Origin: Escherichia coli
GTDB taxonomy: Bacteria > Pseudomonadota > Gammaproteobacteria > Enterobacterales > Enterobacteriaceae
Length of the DNA stretch: 64,000 nt
Assembly: GCF_024298765.1 (NCBI RefSeq)
Contig: NZ_CP101210.1
Strand: one strand, 5' to 3'
Shown here in pieces: positions 58,501-61,500 of the stretch (positions are counted from its first letter, which is position 1; every line of letters begins with the position of its first letter). A program made the position numbers.

Positions 58501-61500
58501 TTGCAGCAGTGTACTCTTTCGTACAGCCAGAATGTGGCTGACTGAGGTTGAGCAGATAACGTCCGTATGCCCGTTGACCACTTCCGGACGGGAGAGTGTG
58601 ATTGCAGACATAATCGATATTCCTTTTCGCAGATAAACGAAAACGCCAGCCCTGTTCAGGCTGGCGTCAGGGTAATGAAGCGTGGTGAGTGATATTCACC
58701 GGTTCTGGTGCAGAAGCTGCAGATGACGCAGGGTACGGACATCCTCTCTGGCCTGTTCGATACAGGGCAACAGTGCTGCCGAATCCGTTCTATCCTCATC
58801 GTTGTCAAAGATAATTCCCGATTCGCAGTCGATATTGTCCTGTAGCCACGCAATCAGAATATCCAGTGCGGTTTCCGTGGTTAATGATTTCATGTTGTTC
58901 CTGGTTACCAGTCGAAAGTGGGCAGGTCCGGCAGACATTCAGCGCTGGCATCCAGATGAATGAGACTGACGCCATAACGTTGGATGAGTGTGACAACCAG
59001 ACGACGGAACGTTTTTGACAGCCCCAGGCGCTTGAGCCGCAGAACCGGATATGACCACGCATCGGTACGTAACAGATATCCGCTACCTGTGAAATGAATC
59101 CATTCTGATTCACCGAAGTCACTGGTCTGGTGTGACAGCGAGTACAGCCAGGCGTTATCCTTTTCCGTGATATGTGCGGTACTGCAGCGTATGCCGGCAA
59201 GGGTTGCAAACGGTGGTAGTGTGCAGGTTGACTGTTGGTCGGATTCCTCCACCACGCGGAGTGAATAACCGTTTTCAGCGACTTTGTTAATCAGTTCAGC
59301 GAGCTCAATACTATCGACGTCAACGACAATGCGCCCCATGTTCAGCGCCTGCGCATTAATGCTGTCGGCTTCCAGCGTCAGGGCCAGTTGCATCGTTTCG
59401 CCCCCGGATGTTTACCCAGGGTAATGTTATTTACCGTTCTGTAGTTGTCGCGTGTCATCAGGCCGGTTGCCCGGCGTGCCCGGAGGATATCAATACTGTT
59501 TATTAACTGAGAACGGGTACAGGCGCTGAATCCCGGCTGGTCGGTACGTACCAGTGCGTATTTTTCAACGAGAAAGTTCACCGCATCGCACAGTGAAATG
59601 CCTGCCTCAATATGCTGCTCAATCACACGTTCATCAGCGAACGGTGTGTCATTCAGCGTAAGGCCGTAATGCTGGTCCAGCAGTCGGGTGAGCAGTGTCT
59701 GCCAGATTTCAACCGGAGACGGGCGTGAACTGGCCGCCTGCCCGGGTAATACAGGTAATGTTTTCATACTGAAGATTTTCCTGATATGCAGAGATGAAAA
59801 ATGGAAAAGTGGCGTGGTGAAAGCACCAGGCCGGAGCAGAAGGTTATTCTGGAGAGTTACTTTTTCGTTTCGGGCGTCGGATAAACAGCCATATAAACGT
59901 AGCCACAACTGCCGAGGGTGTCGGCTTCGCAGGTCAGCCCTTTTGCATACAGCGTGACGGTATGCTGATGGCGGGAATTCAGTTCACCGCTGGTGAGCAT
60001 GAGTTCCAGTTGTTTCATCAGCAGCGGAAAGGCCTGGTCCAGGTGGTACGAATCCGCGTCGCTGAACCGGCCTCTGATACCGGCGCGGTCGGCAAGGTAA
60101 TGCAACCGGTTGCCCTCCTGCACCAGACGGGCGCCGAAACAGGGCGTCACGGTGCAGGGTAGTCCCCACCAGGGACGGTCATGATTGTCATCGGGATGCG
60201 TTGTCCCGGAGAGTGTGTCTGACACGATAAAATCCTCACAGAAAATCGGTGAATGATAGTTTAACGATGACGAGTCAGCCGGCGCGCAGACCGGCTTCGG
60301 TGAAGGTGTATTCGTTGATGAGTAGGGCCTCATCCACAGCGGCGTCTGAGGTCAGCCAGTCGTACTCGTTTTCCAGTTGACGGTACAACCAGAAGGCCAG
60401 GTCGCGCAGGGCTTCACTGACTGCGGCTTCCGCATCGGCTGTCATAGCCTGACCAGTCGGACTGTTCCTGGTAACTGTGATATCCATGCTGTACGGATGG
60501 CAGTAACGTCCCCGGTGACTGATTTCAGCCTGTAATTGCCAGAAGTTACGTTTCTGCACCGCCTGCAGGGCATCCGCGATACGATGGAGTTCATGCTCCT
60601 GTGGGGCATACTTCCGGATTCTTCTGACTGTCGCTGGCTGCCAGTGCCAGCGTCCTTCAAAACAGGCTCCGTCCCCCTGGCTGCAGAATCCGCTGAACCA
60701 GATGCTCGGCTCTTCCATAAACCTGCCGTTGCTGAGCCGGAAAACGCGCTGGCGGAGGTCAATTCCGAAAATGCCACAGACCTCCCTGAAGTCTTCATAC
60801 ACGTTTTCATACCAGTTGCTGTCAGCATGATGCTGACGGTACCCGTCGCGGGCTTTTTCCTGTGCCGGGCAGGAAAGCTCATCCAGCGTATACACGGTGG
60901 TGGTGATAATTCTGCTCATCAGAATGCCCTGATTCAGTTCAGTGTGACGCTCATCAGCCGGACATACGGGCCAAAACTGTCCTTACGACGTTCAGCAAAC
61001 ACGGCCAGCACACCGGGAATATCCTGCACTTCACGACCGGTATACGCTTCAGTGCTGCCGTGCCAGCGGTACTTACCGGTACAGAACGGAAAAAGACGGG
61101 ATGCAGGATGCTGACGGTGAATACGCATGGCTTCACCACGGGTGATGATTTTCATAATGGGATACCTCTGAAGACAGAAGATAAAAGTGAAAACAGGTGT
61201 GATGTGGTTGTGGCGGTGACGGGTTAAAGCAGGCCGTGTTCCGCAAAGGAGAAAACCTGGCTGCCACCGACTATCAGATGGTCCGGCACCCGGATATCCA
61301 CCAGGCCCAGTGCCTGTACCAGACGTTCCGTGATAAGCCGGTCAGCCTTACTGGGGGTGACTTCACCGGACGGGTGGTTGTGTGCCAGCACCACGGCAGC
61401 GGCATTGTGGTACAGGGCACGTTTAATCACTTCCCGGGGATGGACTTCCGTGCGGTTGATGGTGCCGGTGAAGAGGGTTTCACCGGCAATCAGCTGATTC

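Follow-up and report, generated by a model that had tools for sequence, protein, structure and literature searches.

Introduction

Escherichia coli K-12 carries three toxin-antitoxin pairs of one kind, CbtA/CbeA (YeeV/YeeU) in CP4-44, YkfI/YafW in CP4-6 and YpjF/YfjZ in CP4-57, and each of the three antitoxins neutralises each of the three toxins (PMC5371832). Previous studies showed that residue F65, conserved in all three K-12 toxins, is the FtsZ-binding determinant, through which YpjF targets FtsZ (and MreB), and that R15, the MreB-binding determinant, is specific to CbtA proper (PMC5624674). The F65S mutant of K-12 CbtA no longer bound FtsZ, the R15C mutant no longer bound MreB, and the double mutant was non-toxic (PMC5624674). 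In K-12 the upstream genes appear to share an operon with the pair, transcription is low, and neither protein autoregulates; the antitoxin genes can be deleted without cell death, which sits uneasily with a strong role in addiction (PMC5371832). Among the islands of pathogenic strains, an association of vat, Ag43 and thrW has been listed for PAI-536-thrW (PMC7545054).

Here we analysed a window of 64,000 nucleotides of E. coli DNA, in which a preliminary description had reported an intact CbtA/CbeA-type pair and read it as the mark of a CP4-like cryptic prophage.

The toxin and antitoxin genes

The toxin gene (cbtA/yeeV type) is located at 59378..59767 on the minus strand, starts with ATG and encodes 129 aa. 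The Pfam search showed that PF06755 (CbtA_toxin) matched the protein over its whole length of profile (positions 1-112 of 112; E=4.7e-59, 197.7 bits, cut-off 25), and 120 of the 124 residues of K-12 CbtA were identical (96.8%), the substitutions being I24T, S27T, Y120H and E122G. Position 65 is F (context DAVNFLVEKY) and position 15 is R, both as in K-12 CbtA, whereas YkfI and YpjF have C at position 15. At the nucleotide level, the gene differs from K-12 cbtA at 27 positions with just 4 amino-acid changes (dN/dS 0.05). Because the usual TGA stop codon reads TGC here, the protein carries a C-terminal tail of five extra residues, RCNWP (129 aa versus 124 aa in K-12), which lies outside the Pfam domain (residues 1-112) and is the sole peculiarity of the pair. 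The final 16 nt of the toxin gene are shared with the beginning of the DUF5983 gene that follows it. A search for a solved structure of a CbtA-type toxin found none.

The antitoxin gene (cbeA/yeeU type, 59857..60225) lies directly upstream on the same minus strand, separated from the toxin gene by 89 nt, a spacing characteristic of the cbeA-cbtA lineage. It starts with GTG and encodes 122 aa, the length of K-12 CbeA (122 aa). PF06154 (CbeA_antitoxin) matched with E=7.8e-55 and 184.1 bits (cut-off 27; profile positions 1-100 of 101) and was the only Pfam domain detected, with no HTH, RHH or AbrB domain. Identity was 91.0% to K-12 CbeA and 63-66% to YafW/YfjZ, and dN/dS against K-12 was 0.25. 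Among solved YeeU-type structures the protein matched 2INW (E=5.3e-78) and 2H28 (YeeU; E=9.5e-77), and the YfjZ structures 2JN7/2EA9 matched with E of about 2e-41. Both ORFs are under protein-level purifying selection.

Neither ORF contained an internal stop or a frameshift, and their lengths matched the K-12 proteins, so the earlier claim of an intact pair with both genes at full length was borne out; on the minus strand, the limits given for it, 59378 and 60225, are precisely the end of the toxin stop codon and the beginning of the antitoxin start codon. The Pfam matches, which are too strong to have arisen by chance, the K-12 identities, the YeeU structures, the gene order and spacer and the NCBI annotation all agree with the CbtA/CbeA family assignment. 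No NCBIfam model matched the toxin, the antitoxin or the products of the 214-aa, DUF957 and DUF5983 genes described below. The plus-strand ORFs opposing the pair (59688-59957 and 59962-60162) had no Pfam match and were taken as non-coding.

Start sites and the intergenic spacer

The antitoxin GTG is preceded by a GAGG Shine-Dalgarno motif 8 nt upstream, and the toxin gene has a single purine-rich motif, AGGA, which ends 11 nt before the ATG, a long spacing. Both initiation regions hardly differ from those of K-12 and two further alleles (the antitoxin Shine-Dalgarno sequence of K-12 has a single G/A change) and are therefore the normal signals of the family. The preliminary description had called the translation signals good, which is overstated and only partly right. 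Longer ORFs from a mechanical ORF list (TTG at 59908, ATG at 60333) were rejected, since homology and PGAP back the shorter starts.

The 89-nt spacer (59768..59856, minus strand) contains a hairpin at about 59832-59811 (GGCcUGGUG-CUUU-CACCAcGCC), a U-rich run at about 59810-59795 and the AGGA of the toxin. It is almost invariant across four alleles whose coding regions diverge more, its minimum free energy was -20.1 kcal/mol (z=-2.4 versus shuffles), and the predicted pairing covers the toxin start codon. A covariation test of the hairpin among E. coli alleles found every pair invariant and therefore gave no covariation support. The spacer also differs by lineage, being 49 nt without the hairpin in Citrobacter/Klebsiella alleles and 20 nt in YkfI-type alleles; since its conservation does not extend to the Citrobacter and Klebsiella lineages, the hairpin is without comparative support. 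This lineage-specific hairpin and the U-rich run behind it might conceivably serve as an attenuator, holding toxin transcripts at a lower level than those of the antitoxin, or as a partial terminator.

A simple pattern scan of the minus strand over 57600-63500 found no sigma-70 promoter consensus. In the same interval, the only minus-strand terminator-like sites with more than 4 G-C pairs were 63175-63152, upstream of the DUF932 gene, and 58668-58642, just past the DUF957 gene. The latter (58642..58668), detected by pattern scan only, is a hairpin of 11 pairs, 7 of them G-C, with a T-rich tail. An Rfam scan of 54000-64000 at E<=1 returned three sub-threshold chance matches and no family.

The gene block around the pair

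The pair is located in a block of genes on one strand, tightly spaced or overlapping, in the order Ag43, DUF932, antirestriction, RadC, DUF987, 214-aa unknown, CbeA, CbtA, DUF5983, DUF957 and DUF4942. Comparison with K-12 showed that the conserved CP4-type accessory block (Ag43, DUF932, antirestriction, RadC, DUF987, antitoxin, toxin) is present, and the order matches K-12 CP4-44, CP4-6 and CP4-57 as well as plasmid copies.

All members lie on the minus strand. The block enters the window with the 3' end of an Ag43/Cah autotransporter gene (63437..64000), which runs off the window and was assigned from the PGAP annotation of a 99.96%-identical stretch of E. coli LH13-b; by the LH13-b annotation, the GTPase gene of the accessory block lies beyond the window end. 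It is followed by the DUF932 gene (YfjQ/YafZ-like; 62291..63109; PF06067, E=4.2e-51), the antirestriction gene (YfjX/KlcA-type; 61715..62200; PF03230, E=1e-35), the gene for a RadC-like JAB domain protein (YeeS-like; 61224..61700; PF04002, E=1.3e-44) and the DUF987 gene (YeeT-like; 60934..61155; PF06174, E=5.9e-40). Downstream of the toxin gene, which it overlaps, the DUF5983 gene (YeeW-like; 58905..59393) encodes 162 aa with matches to PF25638 (E=1.3e-27) and PF19419 (E=8.6e-22); in E. coli this gene is always found downstream of CbtA-type toxins (PMC10790755). The DUF957 gene (58696..58893, 65 aa) was assigned from the PGAP annotation of LH13-b, and a search of its product against the Pfam copy used gave no match. 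The last gene of the block encodes a 282-aa DUF4942 protein (57763..58611; PF13708, E=7.9e-69) with weak PHROG similarity to a DNA methyltransferase family. None of ten block proteins, the toxin-antitoxin pair included, matched a PADLOC model.

Between the DUF987 gene and cbeA lies a 214-aa gene (60275..60919). Its product had no match in Pfam, NCBIfam or PADLOC and corresponds to phrog_5162, of unknown function. More than 2500 homologues were found, named 'antitoxin of toxin-antitoxin stability system' by some sources, and homologues at about 60% identity extend to Alphaproteobacteria. The AF2 model was confident (pLDDT 87.5), and comparison of its fold with the PDB gave no convincing match. 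Several E. coli genomes encode natural in-frame fusions of the 214-aa protein with a CbeA-family domain. The protein could conceivably be a functional partner of the antitoxin, giving a three-component variant of the locus with the spacer attenuator as a weaker addition, but we regard this as improbable.

Integration site and distribution

A P4-type tyrosine integrase gene (56315..57670) on the plus strand faces the end of the block. Its product contains PF13356 (Arm-DNA-bind_3, E=1.2e-18), PF22022 (E=9e-6) and PF00589 (E=1.6e-16), scored only 79.5 bits against NCBIfam PRK09692 (cut-off 434) and was only 25% identical to K-12 IntF. PGAP places its start 36 nt further in. The full gene was present in 195 of 5426 genomes.

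Beside the integrase gene, at 56140..56185 on the minus strand, we found a 46-nt sequence that repeats the 3' end of thrW (tRNA-Thr) without a mismatch. ARAGORN detected no intact tRNA in the window, and the fragment surfaced only by k-mer comparison and alignment with the thrW of the related genome LH13-b; intact thrW-proA lies past the right end of the window in related genomes (LH13-b, APEC E14033). This repeat is the att repeat between the vat island on its left and the toxin-antitoxin island on its right. APEC E14033 has a similarly placed integrase of near-identical length and the same att fragment, with different cargo (UvrD, type I R-M and Zorya). The element is a thrW-integrated genomic island in tandem with the vat pathogenicity island, and not a virion-forming prophage.

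A homologous locus was found in 4934 of 5426 complete E. coli genomes (about 91%), with a median of 3 copies. DNA 100% identical over the pair region occurred in four complete genomes, and NCBI uses the names cbtA/cbeA in the identical genomes. The exact toxin protein, named CbtA, occurred on 93 public contigs and the exact antitoxin protein on 105. In LH13-b, which is 100% identical across the pair, PGAP annotates both ORFs at identical positions. The identity over 59300-60300 had suggested that the whole window was collinear with LH13-b, which proved wrong: the match is limited to 56134-64000 (99.96%) and the ecp region (96.6%), and a prophage sits in LH13-b where the window has the vat island. 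The closest vat-bearing genomes were 97.3% identical over 14.5 kb and lacked the 214-aa gene. APEC E12049 and GABEEC10, with a vat-integrase-block layout like that of the window, carry a 125-aa form of the toxin. The window is a mosaic.

Function of the pair and alternative explanations

We conclude that the pair is very probably a working allele of the cbeA-cbtA (yeeU-yeeV) module of E. coli, and the sequence itself holds no evidence to the contrary. Our analysis contributes to this reading the integrity of the genes, family membership, near-identity, the key residues, purifying selection and the island context, and from the literature we infer the targets, the neutralisation mechanism, the expression behaviour and the biological role. 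The earlier statement that toxins of this family target FtsZ/MreB agrees with published work (PMC5624674, PMC5371832). The antitoxin (122 aa), whose gene immediately precedes that of the toxin on the same strand, would counteract the toxin in the manner of K-12 CbeA, which leaves the toxin unbound and instead binds and bundles filaments of FtsZ and MreB ('type IV'). By analogy, expression would be low, constitutive and without autoregulation, and the most likely role would be selfish maintenance of the thrW island.

The 'cryptic prophage' label of the preliminary description holds in the K-12 naming sense, that is, for an element with a P4-type integrase at a tRNA. It does not hold for a prophage proper, and we consider it extremely improbable that the segment is what is left of a true prophage, virion-forming or satellite, and the pair a phage gene. 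The K-12 annotation does name the homologous elements 'cryptic prophage CP4-6/44/57', the domain architecture of the integrase is P4-type, and related thrW islands have AlpA-, YfjI/DUF3987- and YagK/YfjJ-like genes near thrW. Against this, we found no capsid, tail, terminase, lysis or P4 replication genes between 56140 and 64000, the visible part of the island, and toxin homologues occurred in one of 50,697 phage records, that one a 3.2-kb unannotated fragment. As the toxin family is nearly absent from phages and nearly universal in E. coli, the pair marks the island class and not a prophage proper. Moreover, the cargo behind a like-placed integrase at a shared att fragment varies by strain, as with the defence systems of APEC E14033, which is island behaviour. 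It is also very unlikely that the five added residues weakened or inactivated the toxin and left the locus an intact-looking relic. The TGA-to-TGC change adds RCNWP, APEC E12049 and GABEEC10 have the shorter form in a layout like that of the window, and a C-terminal (His) tag reportedly abolished the toxicity of the paralogue YpjF (PMC5371832). However, the Pfam domain is unaffected, the key residues are still present, dN/dS against K-12 is low, and the exact 129-aa protein recurs on many contigs and, with identical DNA, in the complete genomes counted above. His6-CbtA-GFP, with a whole GFP at the C terminus, was still toxic, so CbtA tolerates C-terminal additions (PMC5624674).

Two further explanations accept the gene identities. 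The neutralisation may not be of type IV and may work on toxin mRNA or translation, or by transient direct binding, in which case only the label would be wrong. The type IV evidence is a single series of bundling experiments in vitro, to which later papers refer, and the conserved spacer hairpin with predicted pairing over the toxin start codon makes RNA-level control conceivable. The YeeU fold is also said, in work by Arbing and colleagues from 2010, to resemble RelE/YoeB-type ribonucleases, which we count in favour of such a route. A literature search for work overturning the type IV classification found none, and CbeA protects against unrelated FtsZ inhibitors too (PMC5624674). The toxin mRNA level was unchanged on antitoxin deletion, and all antitoxins cross-neutralise all toxins despite toxin identities to CbtA of only about 58-64%, which is what target-level protection predicts. 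A route other than type IV is therefore improbable. Somewhat less so, but still unlikely, is that the pair forms part of a larger co-transcribed module for establishment or anti-defence in a new cell, with a role of CbeA beyond neutralising its neighbour. The same order of genes is seen again on chromosomal islands and on large Klebsiella and Citrobacter plasmids, an antirestriction gene lies inside the block, and the same-strand genes are tight or overlapping, with terminator-like sites of more than 4 G-C pairs only upstream of the DUF932 gene and after the DUF957 gene. The natural fusions of the 214-aa protein with a CbeA domain point in the same direction, and CbeA, YfjZ and the orphan YagB were translocated as Cre fusions through an F-type conjugation system, but the reported frequencies were low (PMC11288057). 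In addition, the K-12 toxin and antitoxin genes alone reproduce toxicity and rescue (PMC5371832, PMC5624674), most block members have no known function, and a larger module would be compatible with the standard two-gene reading.

Comparison with known systems

The pair is already known, the exact allele being in public databases under the same name; it is one of the commonest toxin-antitoxin loci in E. coli, and apart from getting the annotation right it is of little consequence. It is useful as a landmark: taken with the integrase and the 46-nt thrW repeat, it identifies the last 8 kb on the right of the window as the end of an island integrated at thrW, with the vat pathogenicity island of an ExPEC/APEC-type strain in tandem beside it.

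Compared with CbtA/CbeA of K-12 CP4-44, the locus shares both families, the gene order, the strand and the GTG start of the antitoxin, and the spacer of CP4-44 (88/89 nt) is nearly identical. The neighbours also correspond, with RadC and DUF987 genes upstream and a DUF5983/YeeW-type gene downstream. In contrast, the locus lies at thrW and not at the CP4-44 site, it has an integrase, which CP4-44 lacks (PMC5371832), and the 214-aa gene is present here but missing at this position in CP4-44. The DUF5983, DUF957 and DUF4942 genes are intact here, whereas the K-12 versions are truncated or fragmentary.

YkfI/YafW of K-12 CP4-6 shares the chromosomal site, between proA-thrW and the pao/yagU side, as well as the families and the kind of accessory block, and in both elements the thrW-distal att copy is where the integrase is found, reading away from that copy. 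The proteins, however, are only 58% (toxin) and 63% (antitoxin) identical, the two integrases share just 25% identity, the spacer is 20 nt versus 89 nt here, and the CP4-6 block abuts thrW and reads towards it, whereas the block of the window abuts the integrase end. YpjF/YfjZ of K-12 CP4-57 belongs to the same families (64% and 66% identity) but differs in its 20-nt spacer, its ssrA site and Cys at toxin position 15.

The ExPEC/APEC thrW islands (VAT-PAI of Parreira & Gyles 2003; PAI III536 / PAI-536-thrW) share the link between vat, Ag43 and thrW with the window, and APEC E12049 and GABEEC10 have the same layout of vat, MarR, integrase fragment, att, integrase and block. The toxin-antitoxin alleles themselves, by contrast, are 100% identical to those of genomes without vat at this place, such as LH13-b.

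Integrity and family assignment of the toxin-antitoxin pair

The preliminary description placed an intact, full-length CbtA/CbeA (YeeV/YeeU) pair at 59378-60225, and both the coordinates and the family assignment were borne out. The coordinates were exact, and the Pfam matches were far above chance level and covered the profiles essentially end to end. The CbeA antitoxin gene (59857-60225, minus strand, 122 aa) matched PF06154 CbeA_antitoxin (E=7.8e-55), and the CbtA toxin gene (59378-59767, minus strand, 129 aa), located downstream after a gap of 89 nt, matched PF06755 CbtA_toxin (E=4.7e-59). 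No internal stops or frameshifts were found in the pair. The toxin was 96.8% identical to K-12 CbtA, 58% to YkfI and 64% to YpjF, and the antitoxin was 91.0% identical to K-12 CbeA, 63% to YafW and 66% to YfjZ. Among solved structures, the YeeU-type entries 2INW and 2H28 matched the antitoxin (E ~1e-77), and a search for a solved structure of the toxin found none. The 1-kb stretch around the pair was 100% identical in four complete genomes, whose PGAP annotation puts cbtA and cbeA in identical places. Homologous loci were present in 4934 of 5426 complete E. coli genomes (median, three loci per genome).

A mechanical ORF list gave longer ORFs for both genes, beginning at upstream TTG/ATG codons; we preferred the shorter starts because homology and the NCBI annotation of identical DNA support them. 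The claim of good translation signals held only in part: the antitoxin starts with GTG (GAGG 8 nt upstream) and the AGGA of the toxin ends 11 nt before its ATG, but the initiation regions are nearly the same as those of the K-12 genes, which are known to work and where the antitoxin Shine-Dalgarno is AAGG. The 89-nt spacer (59768-59856, minus strand) was almost invariant between alleles. It carries a hairpin at ~59811-59832 (GGCcUGGUG-CUUU-CACCAcGCC) followed by a U-rich run (z=-2.4 versus shuffles), which from its sequence looks like an attenuator, and the toxin start codon lies within a second predicted pairing. No covariation support was found for the hairpin, which was confined to the lineage with the 89-nt spacer and missing from other lineages, whose spacers are 49 nt or 20 nt long.

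Toxin C terminus, selection and mode of action

The sole peculiarity in the integrity of the pair was the toxin C terminus. The toxin alleles of the E. coli genomes GABEEC10 and APEC E12049 end in AKQ-TGA at 125 aa. In the window, CAA TGA is changed to CGA TGC, four extra codons are translated and RCNWP replaces Q; the overlap with the downstream DUF5983 gene is 16 nt, versus 4 nt with the usual stop. The Pfam domain of the toxin does not extend into the tail. Compared with K-12, cbtA had 27 nucleotide differences but only four amino-acid changes (I24T, S27T, Y120H and E122G), with a dN/dS of 0.05, and cbeA had a dN/dS of 0.25, indicating that both genes are maintained as proteins.

The statement that toxins of this family target FtsZ and MreB agrees with the work on K-12 CbtA, whose two interactions, with the H6/H7 loop of FtsZ and with the flat double-protofilament face of MreB, are independent of each other and block division and elongation (PMC5624674). 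R15 is needed for MreB binding and F65 for FtsZ binding, and the double mutation abolishes toxicity (PMC5624674); both residues are retained in the window toxin. Rather than the toxin, K-12 CbeA binds the FtsZ and MreB filaments, which it bundles, and it also counters other FtsZ inhibitors (PMC5624674, PMC5371832). The K-12 pairs show low transcription and autoregulation by neither protein, and their antitoxin genes can be deleted (PMC5371832). For the window, the DNA shows an intact, conserved pair under selection, and the mechanism itself is taken from the K-12 work. Because identity is 97% and 91% and the key residues are kept, the window allele very probably behaves as the K-12 pair does. 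The role of the pair may be island maintenance, which fits its position near the att site and the integrase; this is the weakest step of the proposal.

Accessory genes surrounding the pair

The pair lies within a tight run of minus-strand genes extending from the 3' end of Ag43 (63437 onward) to a DUF4942 gene (57763-58611). Upstream of cbeA are a DUF932 gene (62291-63109), an antirestriction gene (61715-62200), a RadC/JAB gene (61224-61700), a DUF987 gene (60934-61155) and a 214-aa gene without an assigned function (60275-60919). Downstream of cbtA are the DUF5983 gene (58905-59393) and a DUF957 gene (58696-58893), separated from the DUF4942 gene by a terminator-like hairpin (58668-58642, minus strand). 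For the 65-aa protein called "DUF957 domain-containing" by PGAP, the Pfam copy used gave no hit even at E<=1. The K-12 CP4-57 homologues of the antirestriction and RadC genes are now named lfgA and lfgB, and proteolytic cleavage of the antitoxin MqsA is reported for LfgB (PMC10846083), which makes it worth asking if the RadC-like protein acts on antitoxins.

The 214-aa protein, encoded between the DUF987 gene and cbeA, had no family match in Pfam, NCBIfam or PADLOC, and its only match was phrog_5162, of unknown function. Its >2500 homologues include ~60%-identical proteins from the Alphaproteobacteria Tistrella, Stappia and Pleomorphomonas, and the name "antitoxin of toxin-antitoxin stability system" is given to it by some sources. 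Several E. coli genomes encode a natural in-frame fusion of it with a CbeA-family domain (342-343 aa, linker LPEDFIV). Its AF2 model was confident (pLDDT 87.5, pTM 0.80), and fold comparison with the PDB gave no meaningful match.

Tandem islands at thrW

A tyrosine integrase gene (56315-57670, plus strand) with P4-type Arm-DNA-bind_3, central and catalytic domains faces the end of the block, the reverse of the usual order with the integrase first and the toxin last. Just left of it, the 3' end of thrW, a tRNA-Thr gene, is duplicated without mismatch over 46 nt (56140-56185, minus strand). This repeat divides two islands, and the intact integrase reads away from it. To its left is the vat island, comprising vat, a MarR-type regulator and the N-terminal fragment of a P4-type integrase (55647-55985, minus strand) adjoining the repeat in the canonical tRNA-then-int orientation, followed by yagU and the ecp operon. 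The vat gene, for a vacuolating autotransporter toxin (50431-54562, plus strand), has a 1-nt insertion in a poly-G run at ~51905 (G10 versus G7TG in two intact alleles) that shifts the reading frame, with a stop at codon 499; judged from the sequence, the change may be real (inactivation or slippage), or it may be a sequencing error in the homopolymer.

Related genomes carry intact thrW and proA 25-35 kb to the right, indicating that the right end of the window falls within a second island, which shares the thrW site with the vat island in a tandem arrangement. APEC E14033 has an integrase of nearly the same length in a similar position after this repeat, but where the window has the block, that genome has UvrD, a type I R-M system and Zorya as the cargo behind the integrase; thus the integrase end is fixed while the cargo varies. 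Positions 1-24000 are core chromosome (ehaA, hyxB, betT, betA, betB and others) and match several E. coli genomes of avian and porcine origin, e.g. APEC O78:H4 E14033, at 100% identity. Because genomes identical over this region carry a different thrW island, the strain is mosaic at this locus.

Alternative explanations

Inactivation of the toxin by its RCNWP tail is unlikely, since a whole GFP fused to the C terminus leaves K-12 CbtA toxic (PMC5624674), the 129-aa form is common (the exact protein is on 93 public contigs under the CbtA name, with 105 for the antitoxin under CbeA) and cbtA is under the constraint described against K-12. The antitoxin may act by a route other than type IV, but the three K-12 antitoxins cross-neutralise the three K-12 toxins (PMC5371832) and toxin mRNA is unchanged in antitoxin mutants. 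The pair may also belong to a larger module for establishment or anti-defence, as the block travels as a unit, contains an antirestriction gene and also occurs on some large enterobacterial plasmids, and an F-type conjugation system was found to have CbeA-family proteins among its substrates (PMC11288057). This is compatible with a functional cbeA-cbtA pair, our main explanation.

The segment had further been called a CP4-like cryptic prophage, a label that holds only as the name is used for K-12 elements. Genes for virion components, lysis or phage replication were absent from the visible part of the element. A true prophage remnant is unlikely, as toxin homologues occurred in only 1 of 50,697 phage records (a 3.2-kb unannotated fragment), unlike the 66 plasmids and nearly all E. 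coli chromosomes in which the toxin was found.

Comparison with known systems

The toxin-antitoxin finding is already known; the observation is confirmed, and its interpretation is supported with the caveat on "prophage". The pair marks the class of tRNA-associated integrative islands, of which VAT-PAI and PAI III536 are known at thrW (PMC7545054), and not a prophage proper. The thrW site is the CP4-6 locus in K-12. The window integrase is only 25% identical to K-12 IntF despite its P4-type domain set. The accessory block is common to the window and to K-12 CP4-44, CP4-6 and CP4-57 (PMC5371832).
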